In this document: positions 1-52,039 of the stretch, one piece after another
Layout of the letters: every line of letters begins with the position of its first letter
Numbering within the stretch: position 1 is the stretch's first letter
Assembly: GCA_036389875.1 (NCBI GenBank)
Contig: DASVVZ010000256.1
Location: 1-57,245, forward strand
DNA: 57,245 nucleotides
Source of the DNA: Pyrinomonadaceae bacterium
GTDB lineage: Bacteria; Acidobacteriota; Blastocatellia; Pyrinomonadales; Pyrinomonadaceae
Direction of reading: 5' to 3'
Made by a program: the position numbers and the translations under genes
The notes under the pieces: model-generated
Seen by the model: the letters and a program-made list of their open reading frames with translations, nothing else
Databases searched by the model: none
Told to the model about the DNA's origin: nothing

Positions 1-2499
1 ACAGAGCATTTCTCCGATCATGAGGTTGACCTACGGAAGAAGCTCGTCGAATGGCTTAAAGCCGAGGGGGTAGAGGTTAGGTGTGACGTAGAATGCGCGG
101 GCGGGGCTGCGGACGTCGTAACGGAGGAAGCGATCTTTGAAATCAAGCACGCGCTTACCCTTGCCGATTTCTATAAGACCTCGAACGATCTGCTCTCTTA
201 CTGGCGGGCGCTTGTCAATTCGGAGCAGCTGGACGATGGGGCCGACGCTATCATCCTGGTTTGTTGTGCGGAAGATTTGAATGCGCTCAAGGCCGCGGCA
301 GACACGGTAGCCGTCATGACGCTGGAAGAGATAATGGTCCCTTCCCCTCCTGAATTCTTCGAGTCTCTCTTAACCCAAGCCAATCAGACAGGCTCAATCG
401 CTGCATTCAGGAAGCTCATTGAAGATAACCAACTCCAGGATGTAACTATTGACAGAAGATTTACCCCGTCACAACGCACCAAGCTCCATGAAGCATTGGA
501 TGCATGTAATGTTTGTGTGTACGCTGGCCTGTCGGATTCTGAAGAGACGAGCGGCATTCTCACACAGCAGATGGATCCGGCCAGGATTAAGACCCACCCA
601 TCGCTTTTAATGCGCGCGCAGGGCCTTGACATAGATCACGTGGAAGAACTGGAGGCGGGCTACAGGGCCGGGCGGACCTACCCTCCTGCTGACATTTTCT
701 TCGACGGTGAAAATTATTGGCTCGCAGACGGAAACCACCGACACGCGGGAGCCACCAGGGCCGGCAAGCTTCTCGACGTTACAGTCCATCATGGGACGTT
801 ACGCGATGCCATCAGATTCGCGCTTGAAGCCAACGTCGAACACGGCCTGAAGCTCACCAACGACGACAAGCGGCTGAAGGTCGTGACGCTGCTATCCGAC
901 CCGGAGTGGTTCAAAGAGAGCGACACCATTCTGGGCGGGATTGCCCATGTTACACAGCAGTTCATAAGCAGCGTGCGCCGTGATCTCGTACCCCTGCTGC
1001 CGGCGCTGGAGCTCAACGAAGGGCAGGAGACGGATGAGACTTTGGCCTCAATGTTGAATGTTCCTGTTGGGCTCGTACGCGTGGTGCGCAGAATACCGAC
1101 GGATGAGCGCGCTTCCCTGACCCAAAATATTTTGAGTGATGACGGGCGCAGGCGCGGCGCCGATGGGGTTGTCAGGTCTATTCCGTCGAAGCCAGCCCAG
1201 CCTCGCGCTGAGGAACCCGAATTATTCTCAGAGGAAAGCGATGCGGCGAATGAATTCGTTGAGGAGACTTCAGCCCAGGCAGCTGAGGCCGCGCCGGCGG
1301 AAAGCAGCGATGAGATCGTCGAGGCCCAAAGGCCCGGCGCAAGTGATGCAGCAGCCGATTCGGTGTCGTCCTCGCCCGAGGCCACCGAACATGGCACTGC
1401 GCTCGCCAAACCTTCCGACGGCGCGCGTGCTGAATCTACCACATCCGGCGGCGGCGAAGCACTCACAGAACAACTCTCGCCGTCATACAGGCTCGCCTCT
1501 CTCTTGAAGAAATGCCCAGAGGGCATGACGACAGAGGAAGTACTGGCGCAGGGCTTCACCATGCATGACATCAACCAGGCCCGGACCGCGCGCGAAATCG
1601 AGCGCCACGAAAACGGGCGATGCTTCTACGTGTGGAAGCCTGCGGACGTCGTCTCGGCCCTCGAAGAATATGGAATGCTCTCCAGACTGGAGCTTGAAGA
1701 TCTCGGCTGCCAGTCCTATGTCATCAACGCGACGCTCTCGGAAGGCCTCATCAGCCAGCCTGAGACTGGCAAATTCACACTCCCCAAAGAGGCTTCCGGC
1801 GACCGTCCCGTGGAGCGAGCCGCTTCCGAATCCCGTCAAGAGACGAGGCCGGAGGCACCGGCCGAGAAGCATCCCGCACAGCAGGCCCCTTCCTCGAGCG
1901 CGCAAGTACAATCGGCGCCCAGGCAGGCTCCGCCCGTCGGGCTCGCAATCGAAAAGGGCCTTAAGAACAGGAAGATGATCATAGGCTTCACATTCATAGC
2001 CGGACTCAAGGGTAAGGTGCAGGCCACGGTAAACGTCGCAGACAACGTGCAGGGGGCAGGGCGTGAAGTCATCCCGCTTGAGGAACTGGTGCTGCCCGAC
2101 CGAGTCCTGAAAATGATTGACTATCAGCTTGGCACCAACATTTTCAATAAGGCAGACACCACCGCGGCTGAGAAAGCGGAGCCCAAGCCCAAAGTCGAGC
2201 GGATATTGGAAGGCTTGAAGGGGGCGAAGGACTTGGAGGCCCTTAACAGGTTGGCCGAGCACTATCACATCGGCAGTTCTAATTTCTATTCGCGGTTTGA
2301 TGCGAAGGACGCCAAGCGTATCACCGACGCGCTGGCCGCGCAGAAGAAAAAGTTTTCACCTGCCTCCAAGAAGAGAGTCTCCACCAAAAAATCCGCGACT
2401 AAGAAGCCGTCGGCGCGCGCGACCAAAGTGTCTGCGAAGAAATCATCCACTAAAGGCTCTAAGAAAGGAGCGCGCTCAAGTACCCGCGCCCGTGCCTGA
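1..2499 (+). CDS. ParB/Srx-like nuclease-domain protein (PRTRC-type) with N-terminal PD-(D/E)xK-like module and Lys-rich C-terminal tail; 5' end probably outside the window
   Basis: Frame 1 has no stop from nt 1 (track ORF starts at TTG 277; first ATG at 316). D-x8-ExK motif ADVVTEEAIFEIKH (112-147). ParB box YWLADGNHRHAGATRAG (DGNHR 727-741). Acidic/Pro/Ala low-complexity centre. Tail KKKFSPASKKRVSTKKSATKKPSARATKVSAKKSSTKGSKK. Confidence 0.75.
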   Translation, partial: TEHFSDHEVDLRKKLVEWLKAEGVEVRCDVECAGGAADVVTEEAIFEIKHALTLADFYKTSNDLLSYWRALVNSEQLDDGADAIILVCCAEDLNALKAAADTVAVMTLEEIMVPSPPEFFESLLTQANQTGSIAAFRKLIEDNQLQDVTIDRRFTPSQRTKLHEALDACNVCVYAGLSDSEETSGILTQQMDPARIKTHPSLLMRAQGLDIDHVEELEAGYRAGRTYPPADIFFDGENYWLADGNHRHAGATRAGKLLDVTVHHGTLRDAIRFALEANVEHGLKLTNDDKRLKVVTLLSDPEWFKESDTILGGIAHVTQQFISSVRRDLVPLLPALELNEGQETDETLASMLNVPVGLVRVVRRIPTDERASLTQNILSDDGRRRGADGVVRSIPSKPAQPRAEEPELFSEESDAANEFVEETSAQAAEAAPAESSDEIVEAQRPGASDAAADSVSSSPEATEHGTALAKPSDGARAESTTSGGGEALTEQLSPSYRLASLLKKCPEGMTTEEVLAQGFTMHDINQARTAREIERHENGRCFYVWKPADVVSALEEYGMLSRLELEDLGCQSYVINATLSEGLISQPETGKFTLPKEASGDRPVERAASESRQETRPEAPAEKHPAQQAPSSSAQVQSAPRQAPPVGLAIEKGLKNRKMIIGFTFIAGLKGKVQATVNVADNVQGAGREVIPLEELVLPDRVLKMIDYQLGTNIFNKADTTAAEKAEPKPKVERILEGLKGAKDLEALNRLAEHYHIGSSNFYSRFDAKDAKRITDALAAQKKKFSPASKKRVSTKKSATKKPSARATKVSAKKSSTKGSKKGARSSTRARA
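1119..1138. repeat. Degenerate copy of the 20-bp palindrome family (GACCCAAAATATTTTGAGTG), inside the parB-like ORF
   Basis: Two mismatches to GACTCAAAATATTTTGAGTC. It is the only copy well inside a coding region. Confidence 0.5.
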
Positions 2500-2540
2500 A
2501 ACACCGCAGAGAGAACAGCATCCGAGGAGGATAAGCATTC

Positions 2541-3020
2541 ATGGCAGTCGTAAAAATTGAAGGTAAAGAAGTGACGCTCCCCGACGAGATCGTCGCGCTC
2601 GGCAAAGAGGCGGTGCGCACGGCTCTTGAGGCTGACTTTCCCGGCGCGGCGAACGCCGACATCCAGATTGAAGGTAAGAAGGGCGGTGGCGCTCCAGCGG
2701 TCGTGACTGTCTCCAAGCGAGCAGCGCCGAAGCAGAATGTGCCGGCACTGGCTGGCAAAGCCACTTCACCTCTCGCGCGAGTCGTCGAATCGCTACTTGG
2801 TGCCCCTGACTATGTAAACCCCGCGATAACGATGGCGGCCGCCTGCCAGTTGGCCGAAACGAGGGGCGACAAGGAATTCTTCGGCCAGATGGCGCGCCGC
2901 GGCGAAATTGAGCGCGCCATCGTGGAGGGGGAGAGAGAGGCTAAGGCTGTACATCGCGCGCTTGCCGTCCTCGGTCAGTCGAAGCCGGCATCGTCTAAGA
3001 CTGTTCCCTTAGGATTCTGA
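2541..3020 (+). CDS. Ubiquitin-like (beta-grasp) candidate with C-terminal extension (PRTRC protein C-like position)
   Basis: N-terminus MAVVKIEGKEVTLPDEIVALGKEAVRTALEADFPGAANADIQIEG resembles small ThiS/MoaD/Ub-like modifiers. GAGGAGG Shine-Dalgarno lies upstream. It sits first in the E2/JAB/E1 cassette. C-terminus is ...TVPLGF. Confidence 0.5.
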   Translation: MAVVKIEGKEVTLPDEIVALGKEAVRTALEADFPGAANADIQIEGKKGGGAPAVVTVSKRAAPKQNVPALAGKATSPLARVVESLLGAPDYVNPAITMAAACQLAETRGDKEFFGQMARRGEIERAIVEGEREAKAVHRALAVLGQSKPASSKTVPLGF

Positions 3021-3023
3021 GAG

Positions 3024-3977
3024 ATGGAAGCTTTAACCACACAGAGCGCGGCCTCCATGCTGCTCGCCGACAAGTCGAAGCTCGGCACGACGGACGCGCG
3101 CTTTTACCTGGCGGGGCGCATGCGCACCAGGACAGCGGCAGGCGCCGTGGAGTATCTGAAGGTACTCTCCACTCATAAGAAGGAGGCTTGGGACGCGCGC
3201 GTAAAACTATCGCTTGACCTGATGAGCATTTACCGCGACCTCTACCCGCGACATTATGCGGCCTCGCAATCGCCAGCTTTTTCGACGGCGCGCGAGCATG
3301 AGTTTTACCGGCTAGTCAACGAGCACCTTTTCCCGCTGGTCGTAGCCGGTGACCGCAGGCACTCGCTCCTTGAGAAGTTAATCGAGCGCGACCCGGACTT
3401 TCTGTTGCCTGCTATCCCCGTCATGGGAACTCAACAGCACGACTGGCTACAACTGGGAGGTTGCTGCCCCTGGGACAATATCCAGCTCGTTTTCCAGTTG
3501 GTGCTGGTACTTGCGGGCCACCCGCTCGGCAGAAGGCATCGCAGCGAGTTTCTCAACTCATACGGGCTGGACGAATCACAGGTCGCGCCGCAATTGGGTG
3601 CGTACGCCTGGACGCACTTCAATTACTGGTGCGCGGTGGCCGGGAACTGGCTGAGCTACCTTCCCCTCGCATTCAAGTTCGTCGGTTACAAGACCGGCTC
3701 GCTATGGCTCGACATTCCGCCCGGGCAGGGGCCCGTGCTGCTGCCCTGGACGCGCCGTAATGTAGGCATGCTCTTCCTCCACCGACGTCAGGCCGAGGAG
3801 ATAAACCAGCAGGTGCTTGACTTCGACCGTTGGCTCCGCGTGACAGGACGGGTCGGCGTCATCCTTGCGATCCAGATGTGGAACGACGCCTACGAGATGG
3901 AGGCCGAATCGGGTCTCACGGGCGTGATGAGGGCGGAAGATTTACAGGACGCTTTAGAGAGGTTGGAGAGAGAATAA
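3024..3977 (+). CDS. Conserved-cassette protein of unknown function (PRTRC protein F-like position)
   Basis: 317-aa ORF starting 3 nt after the upstream stop; its stop overlaps the next start (TAATG at 3975-3979). No motif recognised. Confidence 0.55.
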   Translation: MEALTTQSAASMLLADKSKLGTTDARFYLAGRMRTRTAAGAVEYLKVLSTHKKEAWDARVKLSLDLMSIYRDLYPRHYAASQSPAFSTAREHEFYRLVNEHLFPLVVAGDRRHSLLEKLIERDPDFLLPAIPVMGTQQHDWLQLGGCCPWDNIQLVFQLVLVLAGHPLGRRHRSEFLNSYGLDESQVAPQLGAYAWTHFNYWCAVAGNWLSYLPLAFKFVGYKTGSLWLDIPPGQGPVLLPWTRRNVGMLFLHRRQAEEINQQVLDFDRWLRVTGRVGVILAIQMWNDAYEMEAESGLTGVMRAEDLQDALERLERE

Positions 3978-4726
3978 TGGAAGAGAACCAGCGATTACTC
4001 ATGCCCCGGCAGGACGAACAGTCCTGCCCGACAATTAAATTCTTCGACGGCCAGTTTCTGTTTACGATGGTGACGCTACAGGGCACGAAGATTGAAGCCC
4101 TCCGGAGCGAGGCGGCCGTTCGTGAGGCCTTCACCAACATCCCGGTCGATACGGGCTGGATCAACCAGGACACCACCTGCCGTTCGGTCGTGCGCTGGGG
4201 CGATGGCGGCCGCGGCGAGTGGGCCGTGCTCTACGTACCGCCCGGGCTTCATAAGCTTGAGCTGACGACGGACGCGAAGGCCATTGCCGACAATCTGGAG
4301 CGCATCACGGCGCCTTTGCCCTCCCTCATCTTCTTCGGCGCCGGGACGAAATACTGGCTCTGGGCTCTGAGGGCACCGAAATTCGAACCATACAACGATC
4401 TCATGCGTGCTCCCCTGCCCAACGTCTTCGAGGACGGGGAAGTCTGCTGGGGACCGCACAAGCCACCGGCGTGCACCGGGCGCGCGATTGTGAACGCATG
4501 GGAGCTATTTATCTCCACGACCTTCAGCAACCACGCCGCTTCCGGCAAATCCAGGAAGTATGACGAGGATGTACGCGATGGGCTACGCGAAGCCGCGCGC
4601 TCGGGAGAAAGCCCCTCCTATCCGTCTGAAGACCTTATCCGCTACATGGGGACGGGCCTGAGCATTGACCAGGTGATTAGGGCGTTTACTAAGGATGGCG
4701 AGATTGCGCCCTCAGAGGAAGAATGA
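3977..4726 (+). CDS. E2 (UBC)-like protein, candidate catalytic Cys157
   Basis: Start chosen at the ATG overlapping the upstream TAA. LPNVFEDGEVCWG (Cys codon 4445-4447) resembles the E2 motif HPN..G.IC. Flanked by Ubl-like, JAB and E1 genes. Confidence 0.6.
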   Translation: MEENQRLLMPRQDEQSCPTIKFFDGQFLFTMVTLQGTKIEALRSEAAVREAFTNIPVDTGWINQDTTCRSVVRWGDGGRGEWAVLYVPPGLHKLELTTDAKAIADNLERITAPLPSLIFFGAGTKYWLWALRAPKFEPYNDLMRAPLPNVFEDGEVCWGPHKPPACTGRAIVNAWELFISTTFSNHAASGKSRKYDEDVRDGLREAARSGESPSYPSEDLIRYMGTGLSIDQVIRAFTKDGEIAPSEEE

Positions 4727-5385
4727 TCACGTCGGGTTTCAATTCTTACCAGTTCGCGCTGCGCGGTCAGCCCCTGCCGGAGGTGGATGACTCCATGGCC
4801 GTCTGCTACTTAATCGGCGCAAACGGGGTGCTCGCGCGCTCGCGCCGCCCCGGGCTGGAGGTGGGGTTGCCCGTCGGCGTCCACTTCCAGCAGCTCAGGG
4901 GCCTGGAGCCCGTCACGCCTTACGTGAAGTGGGACCTGCCGCGTGTTCCGATGCAACTGGTAGAGCTAATGCTCACGGTCTCGCGCGCGTGCGCTTCTCC
5001 AGAGCCGACAGAGGCGCTCTTCTACCTGAACCATGGCGAGCCGCATACCAGTGACGCAATCATAAGCGAAGGCGGTTGGAACCTGGAGGCACCGCCGCAG
5101 CGCGCGAGCCGGGAGTGGGTTGAACCCGAAGAGACTGGTGCGGGCTCTTCTACCGAGCGCGCGTTGATAGAAGTCCACAGCCACCATTACATGAGGGCGG
5201 AATTCTCTCCCGGTGATGACACCGACGAGCTGGGCTGGTTCCGGGTCTATGGGGTGATCGGCAACATCTTCGAGAGGCCTGAGTTGCGCGTGCGCGTCTC
5301 ACTCTTCGGCCACGGGTGTGAATGGCCGGCCTCCGAATTCTTTGAACTGCCGACTGAATTAAATGACTGCTTGAAAGGTAACTAA
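4723..5385 (+). CDS. JAB/MPN (JAMM) metallopeptidase
   Basis: Complete JAMM motif H-S-H-x7-S-x2-D in EVHSHHYMRAEFSPGDD (5176-5217), with an upstream Glu (PTEALFYL). ATGA overlap with the E2-like gene. Confidence 0.8.
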   Translation: MITSGFNSYQFALRGQPLPEVDDSMAVCYLIGANGVLARSRRPGLEVGLPVGVHFQQLRGLEPVTPYVKWDLPRVPMQLVELMLTVSRACASPEPTEALFYLNHGEPHTSDAIISEGGWNLEAPPQRASREWVEPEETGAGSSTERALIEVHSHHYMRAEFSPGDDTDELGWFRVYGVIGNIFERPELRVRVSLFGHGCEWPASEFFELPTELNDCLKGN

Positions 5386-5388
5386 GAG

Positions 5389-6351
5389 ATGGGAAAGAAG
5401 GGTAAAAAATTTCAGGGCCGCAAGGCGCAGCCCCGGCCAGTAAAGACGGAGGTGCTCCCCACCCTCGACACGAACTATCTGAAGGCATCGGCGGTAAAGC
5501 TCCCCGACTGGGAGTTCGTGCAGATTGTGCAGGTGGGTGCCGGTGGTGGCGGCTCCTTCATGGCGATGCATATAGGGCGGCTGATGCACTCGCTATACAG
5601 GATGGGCAAAGCCTCGCACTTAACTATCGTTGATCCGGACATAGTGAAGGAGGAGAACGTCGGGCGATCGCTCTTCTGCGACGCGGAGTTCGAGGCCGCG
5701 GTGCCGAAAGCGGAGGCCCTGGCGCGCCGCTACGGCCAGGCGTGGGGCTTGAACGTCAGCTCTTACGTGGGCGAGTTCGACGAGAGCATGATTCTCGGCC
5801 GTGAGCTTACAGTAGTGGTTGGCTGCGTAGACAACGCGCGGGCGCGTCAGACTATCAACGACGTGCTCAAGCACAACCCCGAAGATCCAAACGAGCAGCC
5901 CCCCTCCTTCTGGTGGCTCGACAACGGCAACGTCAGCAACTTCGGCCGCGTGCTCTTAGGCTCGGCCTACTCCGCCGAGCACGTGCGTGGGGCATTCCCC
6001 GAGCCCGGAAAATGCGTAGCACTCCCAAGCCCCGCGATTCAATATCCGGGCCTTTTAGAGCCGCAGCCCGAAGAGGAGGCTGCGAGCGCCGACGGGATGA
6101 GCTGCGCGGAGCGGGCGGCGGCGAACCTCCAGAGCCTGAACATCAACGCCGCGATTGTCATCCAGGCCGCAGACATGCTCACGAGACTCCTGGTCACCAG
6201 AGACCTCAAACGCTTCGCGTGCGAAGTGAATCTGTCGTCGGGCGTAATGAAAAGCTCTTACTGCACTCCCGAAGAAGTGGCGCGCGCATCGCACAAGCCA
6301 ACTTCCTTTCTGACGAAGCAAAACAGGCAGGCGGCAGTAAATTATAACTGA
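5389..6351 (+). CDS. ThiF/MoeB/E1-like adenylyltransferase
   Basis: Rossmann loop VQVGAGGGGSF (5533-5556), then DPDIVKEENVGRSLF and VGCVDNARARQTIN, as in the ThiF/E1 family. Confidence 0.85.
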   Translation: MGKKGKKFQGRKAQPRPVKTEVLPTLDTNYLKASAVKLPDWEFVQIVQVGAGGGGSFMAMHIGRLMHSLYRMGKASHLTIVDPDIVKEENVGRSLFCDAEFEAAVPKAEALARRYGQAWGLNVSSYVGEFDESMILGRELTVVVGCVDNARARQTINDVLKHNPEDPNEQPPSFWWLDNGNVSNFGRVLLGSAYSAEHVRGAFPEPGKCVALPSPAIQYPGLLEPQPEEEAASADGMSCAERAAANLQSLNINAAIVIQAADMLTRLLVTRDLKRFACEVNLSSGVMKSSYCTPEEVARASHKPTSFLTKQNRQAAVNYN

Positions 6352-8345: not shown

Positions 8346-9319
8346 TATTTCTCTCCTAATCTTTCATGCCTGCAGCGCTTAATTCCCTTCTCAGGCCCCT
8401 CCGGGTAATACCAGGTAGACCCGCCGCAGTCGGGGCAAGCCTTGATCTGTTCTTCAGTCAGGGCCTGTGCGGCAGGCGTCTGGGGAGTTGCAGTTTGCTC
8501 GCTGGCGAGCTGGGCCTTGTCCTTTTTCCAGAGACGCCGCCGCAGGTGCTCGGCCAAGAAAGCAGGAAGGCTAGAGACGGTCGTGCGTGCTGCGGCTATC
8601 TTCGCTTCCATTACCAGGACTTCGGCCAGCTCCCTCCACCGCTCGTTCTCGGATGGAGACGGGTCCCTGCCTGTGATCTCCTTTGCGGCCTGTTTCAATA
8701 TTTCGTTCAGACCGGCCAGCGCAGCGTCATCATCAATTCTTTTGTCTTTAATACTTGTATTTAATTGTCTGGTAGAATTTGACTCAAGTACTCCACTACT
8801 TTCGACCCGAGTACTAGAGTGGTCTGGTACTCTAGTACTAGACCTATCGAGAATAATATATTCATCCCCAAGAGGGTCGTTGTTCCTGCTTATCTTCTTA
8901 ATAATACCTTTTGATATAAGACCGAAAAGGGCAATGCGAACAGTCTTCGCCGAACTATAGCCGGTTCGCTCTTTTAATTTGGAGACTCGGATCTGCCTGC
9001 GATCTGTGTTGAAGCCAACCGTGAGGCGCAGGAGATGGTCCAGTACTTTGCTTTCCGCAGGCGTTAAGGTTCTATCCAGACTGTCTACAGTCTCGTTGGG
9101 CTTCCTGTAAAAGTTCGACTGTGGTACTAGACCGCTCTGGTACTCTGGTACTAGAGTAGTAGAGAAAGGCTTTTCCTCAATAATTGGCGGCGTTTCAAGA
9201 TTATCGCTCTGGGACTCTAGTACTAGAGTACTAGAGTCTTTTTTCTGCTCCTGTTCCTGTTTCTTACGCTCGCTTATATCGTAGAGTGCGGCGTATCCCC
9301 GCTTATTGGATTGACTCAT
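8345..9319 (-). CDS. Replication-initiator-like winged-helix protein with C-terminal zinc ribbon (paralogue of 53693-54628)
   Basis: wHTH-like segment TGYSSAKTVRIALFGLISKGIIKKISR. C-terminal CPDCGGSTWYYPEGPEKGIKRCRHE. Iteron-like DNA repeats lie inside the gene. Confidence 0.5.
   Translation of the reverse strand: MSQSNKRGYAALYDISERKKQEQEQKKDSSTLVLESQSDNLETPPIIEEKPFSTTLVPEYQSGLVPQSNFYRKPNETVDSLDRTLTPAESKVLDHLLRLTVGFNTDRRQIRVSKLKERTGYSSAKTVRIALFGLISKGIIKKISRNNDPLGDEYIILDRSSTRVPDHSSTRVESSGVLESNSTRQLNTSIKDKRIDDDAALAGLNEILKQAAKEITGRDPSPSENERWRELAEVLVMEAKIAAARTTVSSLPAFLAEHLRRRLWKKDKAQLASEQTATPQTPAAQALTEEQIKACPDCGGSTWYYPEGPEKGIKRCRHERLGEK
8783..8844. repeat. Iteron-like cluster A (GTACT-containing units) inside the rep-like gene
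   Basis: GTACT cores at 8788, 8811, 8827 and 8835 (for example GAGTACTAGAGTGG, GGTACTCTAGTACTAGACC). An AT-rich stretch follows (GAGAATAATATATTC). Confidence 0.5.
9121..9238. repeat. Iteron-like cluster B (GGTACTAGA / AGTACTAGAG units) inside the rep-like gene
   Basis: Units start near 9123, 9139, 9147, 9219 and 9227. The last two form a tandem TACTAGAGTACTAGAG. Confidence 0.5.
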
Positions 9320-10244: not shown

Positions 10245-10264
10245 GACTCAAAATATTTTGAGTT
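10245..10264. promoter_or_regulatory. 20-bp palindrome family copy (GACTCAAAATATTTTGAGTT)
   Basis: One mismatch to the consensus. Lies in the divergent intergenic region between the AAA ATPase gene (start 10118) and the plus-strand Zn-ribbon ORF (10325). Confidence 0.6.
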
Positions 10265-11571: not shown

Positions 11572-11614
11572 AAAGCCCGGATTCCTGCTTCGTGACGGCA
11601 GGAATCCGGGCTTT
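11572..11614. terminator. Bidirectional intrinsic terminator-like hairpin
   Basis: AAAGCCCGGATTCCTGC, 9-nt loop, GCAGGAATCCGGGCTTT: a 17-bp stem with an A-tract on one side and a T-tract on the other. Lies just downstream of 11641-12114. Confidence 0.7.
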
Positions 11615-24175: not shown

Positions 24176-24697
24176 TTAGAAATTCCCGATAGGCGAGAAG
24201 CTTTCCGCCTCTCCTTCGTCTATCTCCACGATCCTGGAATTTACCTGCTCTCTTAATTCAGGCAGTTCAAAGAGCGTCATGGAGACTTTGGCGCGCTGCT
24301 GATTGTTCTCCGGAGTGAAAGCATCGCGATCTATATCAAGCTCTTCGAGCGTGCATCTGACCTGCCAGTCGCCGCAGATCATTAGCAGGGGCGGCGGCGT
24401 TCCATTGTCCCGCTGGTTCATCAATGCGCGTATGTGCTCAATCGCCTCAGTCAACGAAAGGTTTGTGCCGACCGTGGTCAACCAGCATTCGTCGAAGGAT
24501 ATTTTCTGCGGCTCCCTGTTAGCGTACTGGGGCGGCTTTACACCTCCGATTGTGTCAGCCATCTCCCAGTTATTCCTGTCAGAAGTCCTGATTGACGCAG
24601 GGAAGGGTAGCCCCACGTCGCCCTCATCCAGGTCAAAAGTGTAGGTGCCCGGGCGACGCAGGTTGATAAGAACTAATTTTTTACTTCTACGCGACAT
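24176..24697 (-). CDS. Tail protein downstream of the tape measure (tube-initiator/gpU-like, by position)
   Basis: 173-aa ORF between the tape measure and LysM protein genes. Confidence 0.4.
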   Translation of the reverse strand: MSRRSKKLVLINLRRPGTYTFDLDEGDVGLPFPASIRTSDRNNWEMADTIGGVKPPQYANREPQKISFDECWLTTVGTNLSLTEAIEHIRALMNQRDNGTPPPLLMICGDWQVRCTLEELDIDRDAFTPENNQQRAKVSMTLFELPELREQVNSRIVEIDEGEAESFSPIGNF

Positions 24698-24712
24698 AAA
24701 ATATTTTGAGTC
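24693..24712. promoter_or_regulatory. 20-bp palindrome family copy (GACATAAAATATTTTGAGTC)
   Basis: Two mismatches. Spans the tape-measure stop and the start codon of 24176-24697. Confidence 0.5.
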
Positions 24713-27740: not shown

Positions 27741-27774
27741 CCCGCGACTCAAAATGATTTTGAGTTAAAGCGGG
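27741..27774 (-). terminator. Terminator-like hairpin embedding a palindrome family copy (27746-27766, GACTCAAAATGATTTTGAGTT)
   Basis: CCCGC and GCGGG arms extend the palindrome. On the minus strand the stem is followed by TCTTTTTGT, directly before the tape-measure ATG. Confidence 0.55.
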
Positions 27775-27872: not shown

Positions 27873-28247
27873 TCACTGAAACGCTACAGCGATGTTCTCA
27901 ATTCTCCATTTATGGCTTTCCCTGGTTAACGTGATGATGCTTTTACCGCCGCATTTCCATTGAATCACAACCTCTGCGGATTCATGCACGATAGTTTCGT
28001 TTAGTATCTCAAATCCTTTATTCTCACATTCCAGATAAGTCTTGCGCGTAGCAGCCGACAGTATCCTTAAACCTGTTACCTCTTGACTCTGAGCAGCGCG
28101 TGAAGAGTAGTATTGAAGAGAGCCTTCTATATCCCCCTGCTCTAGCTTACCTGCCCAATTCTTAACAGTATCAGAAGGAGAAGAGAGCGAGCCGCAGCAG
28201 ATTAGCAAGATGCATGAGAGGGCTAACAGGGTGGGCGTGCGCGTCAT
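27873..28247 (-). CDS. Secreted/lipoprotein-like small protein (NTF2/DUF4878-like)
   Basis: Signal peptide MTRTPTLLALSCILLICCGSLSSP, then SDTVKNWAGKLEQGDIEGSLQYYS. Confidence 0.6.
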   Translation of the reverse strand: MTRTPTLLALSCILLICCGSLSSPSDTVKNWAGKLEQGDIEGSLQYYSSRAAQSQEVTGLRILSAATRKTYLECENKGFEILNETIVHESAEVVIQWKCGGKSIITLTRESHKWRIENIAVAFQ

Positions 28248-28310
28248 GCGGCAGATTGTAGCTGAAAATATTTAAGGGGCAAAGCTTACACTCTGCCCCT
28301 TCCTTGTCTT

Positions 28311-28475
28311 GCCATGCCTCGCCTCACCATGCGATGCCCAGCCTGCCCACGCCACGCCTCAAAAACCTTAGAAATAATAGCGCGGGATAATAACCATGCC
28401 ATGCCTGCCAAGCCCTGCCCAGCCCGTCCGGGCCAAGCCGTACCATCCCTTGCCCCGCCGCACCAAGCCCTACCT
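28311..28475. repeat. Two blocks with CC dinucleotides at strict 5-nt periodicity (28311-28360, 10 units; 28406-28475, 14 units)
   Basis: gccat gcctc gcctc accat gcgat gccca gcctg cccac gccac gcctc, and tgcca agccc tgccc agccc gtccg ggcca agccg tacca tccct tgccc cgccg cacca agccc tacct. Confidence 0.7.
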
Positions 28476-28490
28476 CGAAAACTTAAGACT
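28473..28490. repeat. Left arm of an 18-bp perfect inverted repeat (CCTCGAAAACTTAAGACT)
   Basis: Exact reverse complement of 30992-31009. Overlaps the stop codon of 28483-28683. Confidence 0.8.
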
Positions 28491-28683
28491 TCTTTTTACT
28501 ACCCTTCTTTGTTGAAGGTCTACCCATTTTTGGCGGCGTGAAGTTTTTAAGGTCACTATCAGGAACGACCCAGCCGCCAACTTGCTTTGCGTTTGGAAAG
28601 CGCCCCTGCCTACACCACAGTCTTACCGTGGTTTCGTCTACGTTCAGCCGCGCAGCAACTTCCGATGTAGATAGTAACTCCAT
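28483..28683 (-). CDS. Excisionase-family / MerR-like HTH DNA-binding protein
   Basis: LLSTSEVAARLNVDETTVRLWCRQGRFPNAKQVGGWVVP. Basic C-terminal tail. Confidence 0.7.
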   Translation of the reverse strand: MELLSTSEVAARLNVDETTVRLWCRQGRFPNAKQVGGWVVPDSDLKNFTPPKMGRPSTKKGSKKKS

Positions 28684-28727
28684 AGGTCAGCATATTAAGA
28701 GCAGAGCAATGTTTTGTCAACAAATAT

Positions 28728-28780
28728 TTACCGCCAGCGAGAATATTTCTATTGACAAAGTTTCTCGCTGGCGGTAAACT
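28728..28780 (+). promoter_or_regulatory. Sigma70-like promoter (TTGACA-17 nt-TAAACT) overlapped by a perfect 16-bp inverted repeat (candidate operator)
   Basis: TTACCGCCAGCGAGAA (28728-28743) pairs with TTCTCGCTGGCGGTAA (28762-28777). The -35 box is at 28752-28757 and the -10 box at 28775-28780. The GAAAGGGG Shine-Dalgarno and the ATG at 28807 follow. Confidence 0.55.
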
Positions 28781-28806
28781 TATAGACATCGAAAGGGGCG
28801 AATCAA

Positions 28807-29016
28807 ATGAGCAAACTTGAGCAGGCCAAACAAAAGCTCGGATTCATAGGCCGCACGCTTGAAAACGGCTATCTGGACTTTGACACCATAGACGAGCTAC
28901 AGCATGCGGTCTGTAGCGTCAAGCGGCTAATCACTGAGCATGAGCAGGATACGTTGCAACTGCCTTTGATAGAGGGCGCTTCTACATTGGTAGTTTATGA
29001 GCCGAGAGAGGCATAA
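28807..29016 (+). CDS. Hypothetical small protein
   Basis: 69-aa ORF with a good Shine-Dalgarno; first gene after the candidate promoter. Confidence 0.5.
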   Translation: MSKLEQAKQKLGFIGRTLENGYLDFDTIDELQHAVCSVKRLITEHEQDTLQLPLIEGASTLVVYEPREA

Positions 29017-29021
29017 GAAGC

Positions 29022-29056
29022 GGGCTTAGGAAAGCGCAGCAACGCTCCCTAAGCCC
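29022..29056 (+). terminator. Imperfect hairpin between the first and second cassette genes (attenuator/terminator candidate)
   Basis: GGGCTTAGGAAAGCG..CGCTCCCTAAGCCC. No clear T-run. Confidence 0.3.
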
Positions 29057-29087
29057 TTCACCATTCACCACTTGAGAGGGGCAAACG

Positions 29088-29333
29088 ATGAAGGGACAGA
29101 ATAACACATCCCGCAAGACAAAGACACGCGCAGAGCTTCGGGCAGAACTGGCACACGACCTTGCGTTGGTTCTCAACAATCCAGAGCTTCCAAAAGAAGT
29201 ATATGAGGGAATCACGGACGACCTGAAAGAGTTTTACAGTATGCTTTCGGGGGAAGGCCAGCGCTACATTAACGACTCAGAGGATTACATCAAACTCGTT
29301 TTAGAGGGCGGCTCTAAAGGGGGTGCGCGCTGA
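29088..29333 (+). CDS. Small protein, paralogue of 29641-29880
   Basis: Shares the basic N-terminus, RAEL...NPELP.E.Y, and the C-terminal KGGAR with the 79-aa ORF. TGATG overlap with the next gene. Confidence 0.55.
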   Translation: MKGQNNTSRKTKTRAELRAELAHDLALVLNNPELPKEVYEGITDDLKEFYSMLSGEGQRYINDSEDYIKLVLEGGSKGGAR

Positions 29334-29644
29334 TGGCTAAGAGAGGCGAAGCAATAGAATCTGGCGGCTTTACAATGCAGCCTTTCACCTCCGCTGATAT
29401 TGACTACATGGTTGAGCTAACGCGACTTGCCGTAAGCTATGAAGACGACGAAGCCACAACCGCCTTCGCACTCTTAATCGCTGGCATCGCAGCCACTGAC
29501 TTTGACCGTGAAACTCTTGCTTGTTTCATCATTGAAACTGCATTAAGCAAGTCAAGAGAAATCCATTACATGATGAGCGACTACATGAATAAGGAGAGCA
29601 AGAGACTGCGAAAAGAGTTAAATAAAGGGGGTTCGCGCTCATGA
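29333..29644 (+). CDS. Hypothetical small protein
   Basis: 103 aa ending KGGSRS. ATGA overlap with the next gene. Confidence 0.5.
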   Translation: MAKRGEAIESGGFTMQPFTSADIDYMVELTRLAVSYEDDEATTAFALLIAGIAATDFDRETLACFIIETALSKSREIHYMMSDYMNKESKRLRKELNKGGSRS

Positions 29645-29880
29645 AAAAGGTTTCCGACACAAAGCGTAAGTCTAGGGTTCAATCCCGCGCTGAACTGGCG
29701 CGGCTGCTCGCCAAAGTAATGGCACACCCTGAACTCCCCTTTGAACTCTACCACGCCATAGGAGATGAAGTTATTACTTGGATTGATAACAACGCCGCAG
29801 AAGACCCGGCTTACATCGAAACAGCACTAAACGCTTATTTTCGGAAAGTGGCGCGGAATAAGAAAGGGGGTGCGCGCTGA
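29641..29880 (+). CDS. Small protein, paralogue of 29088-29333
   Basis: See 29088-29333. The 3' end AAAGGGGGTGCGCGCTGATGGCTAAGA is identical to 29320-29346. Confidence 0.55.
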   Translation: MKKVSDTKRKSRVQSRAELARLLAKVMAHPELPFELYHAIGDEVITWIDNNAAEDPAYIETALNAYFRKVARNKKGGAR

Positions 29881-30335
29881 TGGCTAAGAAATACAACCCC
29901 TTAAACCTTCCTATTCCAGATTGGAACAAGCGGAAAATGACAAGTGTGGACTTTGAAGCTGTCTGCAAACGTGAAGGAATTACAGTAGAACGCACACGTA
30001 TGAAAGGCGACACTCGCGGCCTCTACTTCATACAGGATGGATGCTCGCACATCATCATAGACACACAGTTGAGAGGGATTAGAAGGGTACAAGTTGAGTT
30101 TCACGAATTAGGCCACTACTTCCTACGACACGAAAGAAACAAGCGGGCATTGAAGCAGATTGACCCTGATACGCATAAGTACGTAAAAGGCAGTCGCTCT
30201 CCCTTACAGGAATGGCTAGAACTTGAAGCGAATATAGTCGCCTGCATAGCAATAGCACCGGGTTTGATGGGCGCTGACGAATTACGCCATCTGGCGCTAA
30301 CCGCTACGAGAATCAACTGGCTAAAGCACAAGTAA
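29880..30335 (+). CDS. ImmA/IrrE-like (COG2856-type) zinc metallopeptidase
   Basis: HEXXH in VEFHELGHYFLRHERN. About 150 aa, a typical size. Confidence 0.65.
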   Translation: MAKKYNPLNLPIPDWNKRKMTSVDFEAVCKREGITVERTRMKGDTRGLYFIQDGCSHIIIDTQLRGIRRVQVEFHELGHYFLRHERNKRALKQIDPDTHKYVKGSRSPLQEWLELEANIVACIAIAPGLMGADELRHLALTATRINWLKHK

Positions 30336-30354
30336 ACCCAAAATATTTTGACTC
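30335..30354. promoter_or_regulatory. Degenerate palindrome family copy (AACCCAAAATATTTTGACTC)
   Basis: Three mismatches. Lies between the ImmA-like stop and the 208-aa gene's start. Confidence 0.4.
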
Positions 30355-30372
30355 AAAAAGGAGAATCTAGGC

Positions 30373-30999
30373 ATGGGAAGTAACATCACAAAAGTAAAGG
30401 TCACAATCAAAGGCGTACGGCCTTTGCTATTACATCACTTCGGCCCTGACGCGCTGCCGCTCGAAAAGCGGGAGAAGACAGGCGTAGCAGGCAACGACCC
30501 CGAAGAGTGGCGCAAGACCGCGCTCGTCAATAAGGATGGTCAAATCTACCTTGACCCTTCTTATGCTTTCGCGTGCATTAGAGACGGCGCAAAGTACACG
30601 AAGAAAGGCAAAGGCTCAATCCAAGCTGTGGTTGCCGCAACTCTTCAAGTCTTGGATGATTCTGTGTTGATAAACCGCTATCTCCCCGGCTTCCCTAATG
30701 GTCATGCTTGCGACCTTGCCAGCGCGGAAGCTCCGACGCGAGACGCTAGCGCTCCCGTTTATCTGGACGTTCGCAGCGTCAAGAACCCAAGCACGAAGGG
30801 GCGCAACGTACGCTATCGCGTGGCCTGCTCTGCCGGATGGTCAACCAGCTTCACTATCCTTTTTGATAAGACCATAGTGAGCAGGGCAGAAATGGAAGCC
30901 GTATTGAATGATGCAGGCGTGCTTGTAGGCATCGCAGACGGGCGCTCTATCGGATTCGGGCGCTTCACCGTAGAAAGCTTTGAAGAGTTAGAGTCTTAA
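30373..30999 (+). CDS. Hypothetical protein (208 aa) with a C-terminal glycine-rich loop
   Basis: Good Shine-Dalgarno (AAAGGAG). C-terminal VGIADGRSIGFGRF. No family recognised. Confidence 0.55.
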   Translation: MGSNITKVKVTIKGVRPLLLHHFGPDALPLEKREKTGVAGNDPEEWRKTALVNKDGQIYLDPSYAFACIRDGAKYTKKGKGSIQAVVAATLQVLDDSVLINRYLPGFPNGHACDLASAEAPTRDASAPVYLDVRSVKNPSTKGRNVRYRVACSAGWSTSFTILFDKTIVSRAEMEAVLNDAGVLVGIADGRSIGFGRFTVESFEELES

Positions 31000-31009
31000 G
31001 TTTTCGAGG
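30992..31009. repeat. Right arm of the 18-bp perfect inverted repeat (AGTCTTAAGTTTTCGAGG)
   Basis: Reverse complement of 28473-28490. Overlaps the stop codon of 30373-30999. Confidence 0.8.
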
Positions 31010-31072
31010 CGCGGCTCGGCTCTGCATGGATTGGCGCGGACTGGCGGGGCGAGGCAAGGCGAGGCATGGTAG
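31008..31072. repeat. GG dinucleotides at strict 5-nt periodicity (13 units)
   Basis: ggcgc ggctc ggctc tgcat ggatt ggcgc ggact ggcgg ggcga ggcaa ggcga ggcat ggtag. Mirror image of the CC tracts at 28311-28475. Confidence 0.7.
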
Positions 31073-31090
31073 GCAAGGCAAGGTTCTTTA

Positions 31091-31387
31091 ATGCCAAAGA
31101 AAAGGCAACCTAAAGAAATCTGGCGAGAGACACGACGCAGGATATTGGCGCGAGACGGCTATAGATGTGTCGGGCCAACGTGCGGCGGCGTGTCTCTCAC
31201 AGAACAGACCGCCCACATAGACCACATACGAAGCGGGAAATTAGGGACTAACGCTGACGATAACTTGAGAAGCCTATGCAGGCGATGTCACGTCCTGCGC
31301 GTTGATTTCAGGCATAGAGGAATGATTGCTAATGCTTTGAGAGATGGAATCATTCCTCCGAACTGGCGCGGGTTGGTTTGGGACTGA
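31091..31387 (+). CDS. HNH endonuclease
   Basis: CVGPTCGG...AHIDHIRSGKLGTNADDNLRSLCRRCH. Confidence 0.8.
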   Translation: MPKKRQPKEIWRETRRRILARDGYRCVGPTCGGVSLTEQTAHIDHIRSGKLGTNADDNLRSLCRRCHVLRVDFRHRGMIANALRDGIIPPNWRGLVWD

Positions 31388-31668: not shown

Positions 31669-31847
31669 CTTCTATTGCGAGTTCTTAATGCTTTCGCTGT
31701 TTCCGCAGCATCTTCGTTGATAAAACTTACATAAGTATTACGCCTTATCACAGGCAAGGCCATAACTTCGGCTTCACTCATGCCTGTTTCCTGCATCAGC
31801 CTGTATATAGTTCGCAGGTAAGCTTTCTTCTTCTTCTCCCTCCGCAC
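31665..31847 (-). CDS. Overlapping ORF downstream of the tail chaperone (candidate frameshift extension)
   Basis: Overlaps the 3' end of 31774-32445 in the +1 frame, across a (GAA)4-A purine tract. Confidence 0.4.
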   Translation of the reverse strand: MRREKKKKAYLRTIYRLMQETGMSEAEVMALPVIRRNTYVSFINEDAAETAKALRTRNRR

Positions 31848-32445
31848 GAAAGGAATTTAACCAGCCACTCTCCTTTTCAGCTAAAGCGAACAAGCTTATA
31901 GCGTCCAAACCCTCGAACATATCCAGAGGCACAGGCCCTTTCATAGTCGCCGTGCCCTCTGATTGGGAAAGCTCCGAAATCTCTTTACCTATAATGAGGT
32001 AGTTCTTTCGCAACCCCTCCAGCTCGTCGGCTTCGCCCTCCATATAGGCGTCTATCAGCGTGCCGAACTCGACCACGTCATACTCAACGCCCCCGCGCGT
32101 GAAAGGGAAAGGCAGCTGGATCTTGCTGTCTGAAAGCTGCTTAGGTTTTCGACCGCCTGCTGTTTTCAGTAGGAAGGCGTTATAGCCGCGAGCCAGCGCC
32201 ATTCGATCCGGGCGATTAAGTGACATGAGAACAGTCATCGGCACCGGCATCCTTAAATCACCGAAAGAGGTGATGGCGCCGCCCAGCATCATGAGCTGGC
32301 TTTGCGTCTCTTTGTCGAACCCTTCCTCCTCGCTCATTTCGAAAAGGTCACGGCCCGTAAGCCTTCTGCCGAACACAACCTTGCTGTGCCTCACCTGGTC
32401 AGGTCCGGTGTAACCGAACCTGAGATTAACCTCGACGTTACTCAT
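31774..32445 (-). CDS. Tail assembly chaperone-like protein (by position)
   Basis: 223-aa acidic ORF immediately after the tube gene, with an overlapping downstream ORF. Confidence 0.5.
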   Translation of the reverse strand: MSNVEVNLRFGYTGPDQVRHSKVVFGRRLTGRDLFEMSEEEGFDKETQSQLMMLGGAITSFGDLRMPVPMTVLMSLNRPDRMALARGYNAFLLKTAGGRKPKQLSDSKIQLPFPFTRGGVEYDVVEFGTLIDAYMEGEADELEGLRKNYLIIGKEISELSQSEGTATMKGPVPLDMFEGLDAISLFALAEKESGWLNSFRAEGEEEESLPANYIQADAGNRHE

Positions 32446-37143: not shown

Positions 37144-37163
37144 GACTCAAAATATTTTGAGTC
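37144..37163. promoter_or_regulatory. Perfect copy of the 20-bp palindrome GACTCAAAATATTTTGAGTC
   Basis: Intergenic, between the capsid gene's stop (37185) and the next start (37074). Confidence 0.7.
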
Positions 37164-41158: not shown

Positions 41159-41222
41159 GCATTATGGGGTTAAGGTGCAGGGCTTGTGTGTGAACAACCT
41201 CGAAAACAACCTCGAAAACAAC
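41159..41222 (-). promoter_or_regulatory. 64-bp repeat, copy 1; contains tandem GTTGTTTTCGAGG on the minus strand
   Basis: The 37-nt core at 41186-41222 is identical to 49119-49155. Lies upstream of 40588-41088. Confidence 0.6.
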
Positions 41223-41241
41223 CTTGCGCGCACTACAAAAA

Positions 41242-41277
41242 AGAGTGGGGACTCAAAACATTTTGAGTCCCCACTCT
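41242..41277 (-). terminator. Intrinsic terminator built around a palindrome family copy (41250-41269)
   Basis: 36-nt near-perfect palindrome AGAGTGGGGACTCAAAACATTTTGAGTCCCCACTCT, followed on the minus strand by TTTTTTG. Lies downstream of 41301-41807. Confidence 0.7.
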
Positions 41278-45752: not shown

Positions 45753-45774
45753 CTGCCGGGCAACTCAAAATGTC

Positions 45775-45968: not shown

Positions 45969-45988
45969 GACTCAAAATATTTTGAGTC
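45969..45988. promoter_or_regulatory. Perfect copy of the 20-bp palindrome
   Basis: Intergenic, upstream of the packaging operon. Confidence 0.7.
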
Positions 45989-49091: not shown

Positions 49092-49155
49092 GCATTATGT
49101 GGGCAGGGGTGGCTGGGCGTGTGTGAACAACCTCGAAAACAACCTCGAAAACAAC
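49092..49155 (-). promoter_or_regulatory. 64-bp repeat, copy 2 (tandem GTTGTTTTCGAGG on the minus strand)
   Basis: The 37-nt core at 49119-49155 is identical to 41186-41222. Confidence 0.6.
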
Positions 49156-49168
49156 TCTACGCCGGTGG

Positions 49169-50218: not shown

Positions 50219-50424
50219 CTATTCTTTTTCCCTTCCTGTGGAAATGCTGCGACTTCAACGCGCTCAATCAGACGAACCTTCGTTTCTACTTTTGAAGGAT
50301 CGCCGTACACGCTGACCGATACGTCTAGGCCCAGCTTCTCCGCGTCGCGAATGCATTTCTGCATGAGCATCGAAACTTCTATGACCTTCTTTGCCGCGGC
50401 CTCCTGCTCAGGTGTTGTTGTCAT
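50215..50424 (-). CDS. Hypothetical small protein
   Basis: Start moved to the ATG at 50424 (GGTGGAG upstream). Confidence 0.45.
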   Translation of the reverse strand: MTTTPEQEAAAKKVIEVSMLMQKCIRDAEKLGLDVSVSVYGDPSKVETKVRLIERVEVAAFPQEGKKNR

Positions 50425-50986: not shown

Positions 50987-51251
50987 CTTCAGTCTGATGT
51001 AGTTTAAGGAGGTAGGCCCCGGGCGTGGCAGGGTCGTATTCTACGCTGCGGTCGCCGCGCCCCTTTATGGAGTCCGCGATCTCTTTAATCACTACCTCTT
51101 TCCAGTCCTCGTAGGCTCTGAGAAAACATTCCCGGTAATTCTCCAGGCTCTCCAGCGCCGGCAGCCACGCCCGAAAAGTAAAGTCCCGGTAAATTACTGA
51201 GTCGCCGATTTTGAATTCAACGCTCAGGCGTGTTATCGGAGGTCTGGCCAT
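50970..51251 (-). CDS. Hypothetical protein
   Basis: 93-aa ORF. Confidence 0.45.
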   Translation of the reverse strand: MARPPITRLSVEFKIGDSVIYRDFTFRAWLPALESLENYRECFLRAYEDWKEVVIKEIADSIKGRGDRSVEYDPATPGAYLLKLHQTEGENGR

Positions 51252-51253
51252 CC

Positions 51254-51472
51254 TCAGGCTCCTCCTACGTGCTTGCCTTCAGGGACAGGGATGTTCAAAG
51301 ACATTGTCTTAGAAGAGCAGCCGGGTGAATGAAGCAGGTGGTGCGCGCCGACCGAACGCATGATCTGCTTTTCCCATGTCGCATATTTGACGCAGCGCGG
51401 CCGGGCCGGCACGGGCAACTCGCCTTTGTAGTGGCACCTGACGCATTCGTAGCTGATAGTGATTGTGTTCAT
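51254..51472 (-). CDS. Small Cys-rich protein
   Basis: CVRCHYKG...RPRC...SPGC. Confidence 0.45.
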   Translation of the reverse strand: MNTITISYECVRCHYKGELPVPARPRCVKYATWEKQIMRSVGAHHLLHSPGCSSKTMSLNIPVPEGKHVGGA

Positions 51473-51609
51473 TATCGACCACCGTTCCAGACGTCAGTAG
51501 CTATAACAATCAAGACCGTGATGAAACCCACCTTCCAGCTTATGCCCCAGTGCTGACCCAGTAGGAGGGCAACAAGAAGGATGGCCACTGCGATTAAAGC
51601 TCTCACCAT
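51472..51609 (-). CDS. Small two-helix membrane peptide (45 aa; below the track cutoff)
   Basis: Hand translation MVRALIAVAILLVALLLGQHWGISWKVGFITVLIVIATDVWNGGR. TAATG overlap with the next gene. Confidence 0.4.
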   Translation of the reverse strand: MVRALIAVAILLVALLLGQHWGISWKVGFITVLIVIATDVWNGGR

Positions 51610-51613
51610 TGCC

Positions 51614-51985
51614 TTAGACCTTTCCTTTGTGACGCATCCGCAGCCAGTTAAAACCGGCGTCCCTCAGCTCCAGAAGCCGGATGGCCAGCGTAGCCCCGTC
51701 GCGCTTACGGCGCCCAATATCCCTCCATGATGGGCGATGTTCCATACGTCTATAGGCCAAGCCCCAGACAGCCAAAGTCAATATCAATCGTGAGTAGAAC
51801 CAGTAGGTGGTGCGCTTGCCTTCGCCCACAGCCACCACGACACCCTCCAGCGGCTTCTCCTTGGCGTTATCCGGTATGACAATAAGGCTTTGTTCCTCAC
51901 TCTCATCCGCGCGACGGATGATGACTCTATCCTGAAGAGGGGTGCCGATTTGCTTTGTTGCTTGTTTGTTCATTGTCTTCTCCAT
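51614..51985 (-). CDS. GroES (Cpn10)-like N-terminal half fused to an unrelated hydrophobic/basic C-terminus
   Basis: [42 protein letters not shown] aligns by eye with GroES (PL.DRV.v.r.e.e....GI.iP..a.ekp..G.VvAvG.G). Similarity is lost after that point. Confidence 0.55.
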
Positions 51986-52019
51986 AATTTGTGCCCGCCG
52001 AGTATCTCGCCGGGGAGGT

Positions 52020-52039
52020 GACTCAAAATATTTTGAGTC
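52020..52039. promoter_or_regulatory. Perfect copy of the 20-bp palindrome
   Basis: 35 nt upstream of the GroES-like gene's start. Confidence 0.7.

Follow-up and report, generated by a model that had tools for sequence, protein, structure and literature searches.

Dispersed palindromes at the gene junctions of a temperate phage as putative binding sites of its own ParB/KorB-like protein

What is a 20-bp palindrome doing at one gene junction after another of a phage genome, and is it read as DNA by a protein or as a hairpin in the RNA? The question is raised by contig DASVVZ010000256.1 of a Pyrinomonadaceae bacterium (GenBank assembly GCA_036389875.1). The stretch analysed here, referred to throughout as the window, comprises 57,245 nucleotides and, according to scans against Pfam, PHROGs and NCBIfam, is a temperate myovirus-like genome of 55% G+C. 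We propose that the palindromes serve as parS/OB-like sites for a ParB/KorB-family protein that the phage itself encodes (1–2499) rather than as a set of terminators; judged on sequence comparison and a structural model, this proposal has about an even chance of being right.

A search allowing up to three mismatches to the 20-mer GACTCAAAATATTTTGAGTC, which is the window's perfect intergenic copy, returns eight copies, and none in 100 dinucleotide-preserving shuffles of the window. The original prediction, made from the sequence of the window, had listed nine dispersed copies and a half-site and had considered them beyond chance; all are found where it placed them, and relaxing the search brings up a tenth copy at 57042–57061, which has diverged and yet remains a palindrome, together with a few isolated half-sites. 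The core AAAATATTTT occurs seven times in the window, each time within the motif. Although coding density is 92%, the copy at 1119 is the only one that is neither intergenic nor in overlap with a start or stop codon, as had also been described. The earlier description of these places as operon junctions is better worded as gene junctions, since several sites lie between genes that are probably co-transcribed.

Three copies are perfect: 52020–52039, 35 nt upstream of the GroES-like (Cpn10) gene; 45969–45988, 5 nt past the stop codon of the PhageMetallopep gene and directly adjoined by the Shine-Dalgarno sequence of the next gene; and 37144–37163, 21 nt past the major capsid stop codon and 70 nt before the next gene. 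Single mismatches are present in the copies at 41250–41269, after a portal-proximal gene, and 10245–10264, 244 nt after a Zn-ribbon gene and 127 nt upstream of the AAA_22/RepO-like/integrase operon. The copy at 27746–27766 (GACTCAAAATGATTTTGAGTT) has one inserted central base and one mismatch and lies 14 nt upstream of the tape-measure ATG, and that at 24693–24712 (two mismatches) overlaps both the stop codon of the tape-measure gene and the ATG of the CIS_tube-like tail gene that follows. Within a plus-strand cassette, the copy at 30335–30354 (three mismatches) overlaps the stop codon of an M78-peptidase-like gene, and the next start follows 18 nt on. The half-site AACTCAAAAT at 45762–45771 is located 10 nt upstream of the DUF2280 (small-terminase-like) gene. 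The tenth copy (AACCCAAAACATTGTGGGTT) covers the last six codons (THNVLG) and the stop codon of a Cro/Xre-like helix-turn-helix (HTH) gene; it marks the leftward lytic operon's first junction, immediately behind the Cro-like gene, and differs by two mismatches from the variant found in the related element L110 (see below).

The remaining copy, GACCCAAAATATTTTGAGTG at 1119–1138 (two mismatches), is located inside the ParB/KorB-like gene, the candidate binder, where it encodes LTQNILS. This is the window's version of LTQN(I/V)L(S/G)DDGRRRG, a stretch that is nearly invariant in an alignment of the best 13 HMMER hits. The codons beneath it keep the sequence CAAAAynTTTTr in nine homologous genes whose products are 51–75% identical over the ParB/HTH core. 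Glutamine is encoded by CAA in all nine (gene-wide frequency 0.31), leucine by TTR (TTG/TTA) in eight of the nine (gene-wide 0.14), and the central codon ends in TT in nine out of nine. Such a biased choice of codons in LTQN(I/V)L shows that selection acts on the nucleotide sequence CAAAAynTTTTr itself. The Cro/Xre-like THNVLG-stop and the ParB-like TQNILS are two peptides encoded by one DNA motif, and the fact that the palindrome can be read in frame as T-Q/H-N-I/V-L-S/G may explain why it is tolerated inside coding sequence.

The ParB/KorB-like gene is on the plus strand and runs off the left end of the window. Its frame is open from base 1 and matches P0002 upstream of residue 250, and homologues have about 250 more N-terminal residues than the window shows. 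The window therefore probably either lacks 2–3 kb that join its right and left ends or was cut from a larger contig, as suggested by relatives in which this gene and the cassette that follows it sit downstream of a CI-like repressor. For the protein itself, Pfam, NCBIfam and phmmer against the PDB return nothing, and a word-indexed search for homologues returns a single protein. A full HMMER scan gives 11,666 relatives, 36 of them with E<1e-30; the homologue P0007 has a faint ParB_N match, and more distant tblastn relatives are annotated as ParB/RepB/Spo0J or as carrying a ParB N-terminal domain. An AlphaFold2 model of residues 81–310, built on the HMMER family, has a predicted local distance difference test (pLDDT) score of 94. 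Foldseek aligns this model with ParB (Caulobacter, Myxococcus), KorB of RK2, Noc and Spo0J, the top matches being 7bm8, 7bnk, 8qa9, 7ng0, 6sdk and 1vz0 (probability 1.0, E ~1e-5). The alignments extend over about 200 columns, spanning the N-terminal domain and the HTH, with template modelling (TM) scores of 0.36–0.46, low values being expected for a hinged two-domain protein. The gene product is accordingly modelled as a ParB N-terminal domain followed by an HTH DNA-binding fold.

The gene heads a PRTRC-like cassette (2541–6351, plus strand) of two genes of unknown function followed by Prok-E2_D/PRTRC_B, JAB-like/PRTRC_A and ThiF/PRTRC_ThiF genes. The best NCBIfam matches fall below their cut-offs (PRTRC_B 49 bits, cut-off 131; PRTRC_A 38, cut-off 102; PRTRC_ThiF 124, cut-off 145), and the ParB-like gene does not match the PRTRC ParB model. 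The same gene order recurs in L109–L116 and L131–L134, and ten related contigs conserve it. The contigs of nine homologues and three IMG/VR loci were compared. Common to all these loci is a module on one strand, consisting of a CI-like repressor, small genes, the ParB-like gene and the PRTRC cassette, which diverges from a small HTH gene; the repressor is either an HTH_3+S24 protein or an HTH protein whose gene precedes one for an M78 or S24 protease. The elements themselves are of different types: L110 and L131 are phages, and L109 and L112 carry relaxases.

Within each of six independent elements, the palindromes between genes agree with the variant that the ParB-like gene carries, and three classes of variant can be told apart. 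The first has a TA centre and GAGT arms: in the window, GACCCAAAATATTTTGAGTG inside the gene is accompanied by intergenic GACTCAAAATATTTTGAGTC, and in L131 the gene holds GACTCAAAATATTTTGAGTG and the exact 20-mer of the window recurs between genes at 16757. The second, with a CA centre and GGGT arms, is represented by L110, where AACCCAAAACATTTTGGGTG inside the gene has an identical intergenic 20-mer at 1431. The third, with a CG centre and AGGT arms, is found in L112 and L134, with (A/G)ACCCAAAACGTTTTAGGTG inside the gene and AACCTAAAACGTTTTAGGTT between genes; here the intragenic copy cannot be a perfect palindrome, as the perfect form would introduce a TAA stop. Class membership does not go with the identity of the ParB-like proteins, that of the window being 59% identical to its counterpart in L131 (same class) and 68% to that in L112 (another class), so that simple shared ancestry does not account for the matching.

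Positions are conserved between elements as well, which the original prediction had singled out as worth checking. The L110 site lies between PhageMetallopep and DUF2280, the same junction as the copy at 45969 in the window. Another relative, L060, has a large terminase (TerL) 66% identical to that of the window and no copy of the window type; it has a CG-centred variant of its own at equivalent junctions, that at 45969 included, 3–6 nt before Shine-Dalgarno sequences. The CG-centred pattern is found in 12 IMG/VR stretches, one of which lies on one of only three IMG/VR contigs encoding a ParB-like homologue. Among the four candidate binders put forward originally, the intragenic copy, the codon constraint, the within-element matching and the predicted fold together favour the ParB-like protein.

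One alternative is an explanation at the level of RNA alone, by which the copies fold into hairpins that act between cistrons as intrinsic terminators, stabilisers of 3' ends or processing sites, and no protein reads the DNA sequence. Two copies fit it well. That at 41250 forms the tip of a 19-bp hairpin (41242–41277) with eight extra flanking pairs, followed by TTTTTT on the minus strand (−32 kcal/mol, z −7.9), and that at 27746 forms the tip of a longer hairpin (27741–27774), again followed by a minus-strand T-run (−21.6 kcal/mol, z −4.9). The extra GC arms, the T-runs in the sense of the minus-strand genes and the folding energies make a convincing case that both are intrinsic terminators, with the GC-clamped stem and U-run of the Rho-independent type, as the original prediction had supposed. 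Many sites also lie just past stop codons, and the odd centre tolerated at 27746 and in L116 (position 8927) is what a loop would permit. The bare palindrome, in contrast, has an AU-rich stem that folds at only about −9 kcal/mol, and eight of the ten copies in the window have neither a GC-rich stem nor a T-run. In the degenerate copies at 24693, 30335 and 1119 pairing is lost without compensation (z ~0) and yet the core is kept; conservation of the sequence close to the loop is not a trait of terminators. The exact 20-mer is moreover retained between elements whose proteins are 30–60% identical, which an element of structure only would not need. The phage also has ordinary terminators free of the motif, at 11572–11614 and 28301–28274. 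The first of these, an 18-bp hairpin (AAAGCCCGGATTCCTGC...GCAGGAATCCGGGCTTT) with A-runs and T-runs on its flanks, is of the conventional bidirectional kind. It is therefore unlikely that the family consists of RNA elements alone; with their weak stem and missing T-run, the other copies are better explained as operators for a dimeric DNA-binding protein that works phage-wide, as had been suggested at the outset.

If a protein binds, it could be another regulator than the ParB-like one, and the palindromes could be operators of a CI/Cro-type HTH protein, an AbrB-like protein or a host factor. Scattered operators for a repressor have precedents in temperate phages, among them the stoperators bound by gp71 of L5, the conserved inverted repeats (CIRs) of phiC31 and the C1 operators of P1, and in the window one copy directly follows the Cro-like gene. 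The likeness to L5 and phiC31 extends to the distribution of many near-identical short sites over short intergenic gaps in the lytic operons of a temperate phage, where the sites of L5 and phiC31 are thought to keep these operons silent in the lysogen. Those sites are bound by the immunity repressor and are also present at the switch promoters, and the L5 sites are asymmetric and orientation-dependent. The motif of the window differs in being palindromic, in being tied to a ParB-like gene and in its absence from the switch regions examined in relatives: no palindrome was found in the CI/Cro switch regions of L109, L110, L112, L113 and L114 (that of the window lies beyond its right end), and the L109 region contains CGGTAGAG repeats instead. 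This argues against the immunity repressor as the binder. A different regulator would also leave unexplained why the intergenic variant matches the copy inside the ParB-like gene of the same element and why synonymous sites in that gene are under selection, and no bacterial operator matching CAAAATATTTTG was found in the open literature searched. We assign this alternative a rather low probability. The small terminase, DUF2280, was considered as a binder in view of a metagenome contig, L059, in which sites and two DUF2280 paralogues alternate; it was dropped, since the motif goes with the ParB-like gene even where packaging genes are missing, as in L109.

A ParB-like protein need not act on transcription, and its sites could instead be dispersed centromeres of an episomal prophage. 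Prophage N15 has dispersed sopC sites of this kind, and in B. subtilis a parS site lies inside spo0J; the window resembles these ParB–parS systems in having a palindromic site, a copy inside the ParB-like gene and several dispersed copies. The predicted ParB fold, two iteron-bearing replication-initiator genes and an XerC/D-like tyrosine recombinase would be in keeping with partition. The sites of the window, on the other hand, are spread over gene junctions genome-wide and are not clustered near an origin, and the protein has GNHR in place of GERR. No KGGxGK[ST] motif is present in any frame of the window and no ParA in Pfam scans of 80 window open reading frames (ORFs); the only Walker A motif belongs to the AAA_22 protein. 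The missing ParA-type ATPase argues against a partition role, which is unsupported, and we consider this explanation distinctly improbable.

The palindromes could, finally, be recombination linkers or mobile palindromes akin to repetitive extragenic palindromic (REP) sequences or miniature inverted-repeat transposable elements (MITEs), spread by insertion or gene conversion and marking module boundaries. Sites do flank single genes, such as the tape-measure gene (27746 and 24693), the DUF2280 paralogues of L059 and a DUF4041 gene of another metagenome contig, L056; the same 20-mer occurs in otherwise non-homologous DNA; and classes that depart from the ParB tree are what concerted evolution or horizontal spread predicts. 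The exact 20-mer has no match in IMG/VR. The 16-mer core occurs in 47 stretches of IMG/VR, none of which combines several family copies with G+C-rich DNA, and the exact 18-mer in 54 stretches among 185,579 GTDB species representatives, with one match each in unrelated taxa. This is in line with chance, and on these single matches a host-wide repeat is rejected. The original prediction had named as its refutation a generic repeat, equally common inside genes or across the host chromosome; it is not refuted on this count, since none of the 185,579 representatives holds the motif in more than one of the stretches returned, and the motif is not common inside genes. REP/RAYT or MITE-like repeats, which number tens to hundreds over a host chromosome and often come with a Y1 transposase, were set aside as well: no multi-copy genome is present among the GTDB representatives, no RAYT/Y1 transposase was found among the window genes scanned against Pfam, PHROGs and NCBIfam, and no target-site duplications were seen. 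Mobility would also leave the conserved copy inside a coding motif unexplained, and we regard this origin of the family as very unlikely.

Multiple copies in G+C-rich DNA were found in metagenomes. L056 has at least four copies, and L059 has three, which flank the two DUF2280 paralogues in a site-gene-site-gene-site arrangement. No protein shared between L056 and the window was found; L059 and the window have only DUF2280 and RepO/HTH_36 initiators in common, and the initiators carry iterons of their own. L056 also contains a repeated module of about 190 nt (190–400 and 2575–2810), in which two palindromes spaced by about 45 nt precede roughly 110 conserved nucleotides; downstream of one copy is a DUF4041/T5orf172 gene, and downstream of the other a gene for a secreted protein. 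A further contig, L058, has five core variants (kAsTCAAAATATTTTGAsT) at 580–1080 and 3082 in a setting of 41% G+C and eukaryote-like transposase-type ORFs; these were set aside as a probably unrelated repeat family with a chance likeness.

We infer binding and its effect from what the computation shows, namely how the sites are built, how the protein is predicted to fold, that synonymous positions are conserved and that variants match within elements. In the mechanism we propose, a dimer of the ParB-like protein would recognise ACyyAAAAyrTTTTrrGT. One such site would be held inside the protein's own gene through constrained codon choice, and about nine further sites would lie where one gene meets the next in the lytic, packaging, head and tail operons of the minus strand, two of them additionally extended, as tips, into intrinsic terminators. 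The most likely effect of the bound protein would be to keep the lytic operons of the prophage silent or insulated, or to act on them as a road-block, in a KorB-like or stoperator-like manner. Silencing or insulation is favoured because, relative to the switch, the ParB-like operon is on the side of the repressor, the CI-like repressor of related elements being upstream on the same strand.

The closest parallel is KorB of RK2, a ParB-family protein with an N-terminal domain and an HTH, which acts as a global regulator through a short palindrome, OB, present in about 12 dispersed copies near and far from promoters of a ~60-kb IncP plasmid (PMC11790492). The likeness lies in the combination of a ParB-family protein with dispersed palindromes, and two KorB structures, 8qa9 and 8qa8, rank high among the matches to the fold. 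The differences are that the site of the window is 18–20 bp long with an AT-rich centre, compared with 13 bp for OB; that the window is a phage, in which the gene heads a PRTRC E1/E2/JAB cassette, binding is predicted and GNHR replaces the CTP-binding GERR motif; and that a KorA, IncC or ParA partner is not seen in the window. VirB of Shigella is likewise a ParB-family protein turned transcription regulator and is comparable in its AT-rich inverted repeat; it acts from few sites and activates by counter-silencing.

Several observations weigh against binding and silencing by the ParB-like protein. At the place of the CTP-binding motif the family has an invariant G152 N153 H154 R155 (ADGNHRH); in canonical CTPase ParBs this is GERRxRA (box II), and GNHR instead of GERR makes a clamp or CTP chemistry uncertain. 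The HTH residues do not change in an obvious class-specific way, and together with classes that depart from the protein tree this means that the matching could in part reflect concerted evolution. Two related elements, L113 and L114, have the intragenic copy and no intergenic one in the 19–23 kb examined, and conversely L056 and L059 carry several copies and no ParB-like gene in the short fragments examined, which would also suit another regulator. Longer hairpins enclose the copy at 27746 and, over all elements, five of 34 sites that have at least three extra flanking pairs of unrelated sequence, compared with 1.6% expected by chance; a hairpin role is therefore real, yet a minority feature, and the excess counts equally in favour of the RNA explanation. 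Finally, synteny is the only ground for supposing that the ParB-like operon is expressed in lysogeny.

Phages and plasmids with dispersed operators have been described before, as have regulators of the ParB family. What is new is a site family linked to an uncharacterised ParB-like PRTRC component, hard-wired in coding sequence and present in three natural classes. We know of no DNA target for the ParB-related component of PRTRC cassettes, and in the open literature searched no mechanistic study of these cassettes was found. The palindrome of the window and its relatives is a concrete candidate site for this component, and its three natural specificity classes (TA/GAGT, CA/GGGT and CG/AGGT) make binding and cross-specificity directly testable. 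More generally, and more tentatively, a previously uncharacterised ParB/KorB-like clade heading PRTRC (ubiquitin-like E1/E2/JAB) cassettes could silence or insulate the lytic or transfer operons of temperate phages and mobilisable elements through genome-wide 18–20-bp palindromes, one of them hard-wired in its own gene, as a ParB-family 'stoperator' network; this generalisation is possible rather than probable. Such a clade might also tether ubiquitin-like conjugation machinery to the element's own DNA. If the proposal is correct, long-range regulation of the ParB/KorB type extends from plasmids to temperate phages, and a binding site is kept in the regulator's own gene by synonymous-codon selection. 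If it is not, the palindromes are still a clean phage-private repeat that annotation pipelines are liable to misread as terminators.

A promoter reading of the palindrome was also considered and rejected, as a sigma-70-like −35 upstream of the AATATT centre is present at 10245 only and is not general in the window. In two related elements, L109 (13550) and L116 (8927), the palindrome follows the ThiF gene and is succeeded by a conserved ACTTCCyTAATCATATACCG and then an ATG. In these two only, the right arm TTGAGT/TTGGGT could act as a −35 to a CATATA −10 located 17 nt downstream; the window has no counterpart of this arrangement.

As for the rest of the genome, a megablast of 14 kb against INPHARED returned no relative, tblastn with TerL and DUF2280 gave distant phages only, and neither Rfam (window, L056 and L059) nor a tRNA scan gave a match. 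The minus-strand genes run from the Cro/Xre-like HTH gene at the right end through early to late genes. The early genes include an HTH_36/DnaD-like initiator, the GroES-like gene and a response-regulator-like gene; PhageMetallopep, DUF2280, large terminase, portal and capsid make up the packaging and head genes, and sheath, tube, chaperone, tape measure, baseplate and fibres the tail genes. The last operon comprises AAA_22, a RepO-like initiator and the tyrosine recombinase. Two sets of iteron-like direct repeats lie inside the two different replication-initiator genes (8801–9236 and 54144–54275), GGTACTCTAGTACTAGAG-type repeats in the RepO-like gene and three copies of GGTACAGATTCTGTACCACC in the HTH_36/DnaD-like gene, so that the element has two candidate origins.

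The tail gene series is broken up by plus-strand genes at 28314–31387. These belong to a cassette of opposite polarity (27873–31387) between the tail assembly chaperone (31774–32445) and the tape-measure gene, which includes the M78-peptidase-like gene and an HNH gene and has gene-junction repeats of its own, 27 nt long and identical at 29316 and 29863, with a 78% copy at 29624. Another repeat, of 44 nt, occurs at 41186–41229 and 49119–49162 with 93% identity and holds AACAACCTCGAA direct repeats; of its two copies, one comes just downstream of the terminator at 41250. The equivalent junction of L060 has a different repeat, of 38 nt and 95% identical (L060 positions 3695 and 14348), and both repeats are candidate late promoter or activator sites.

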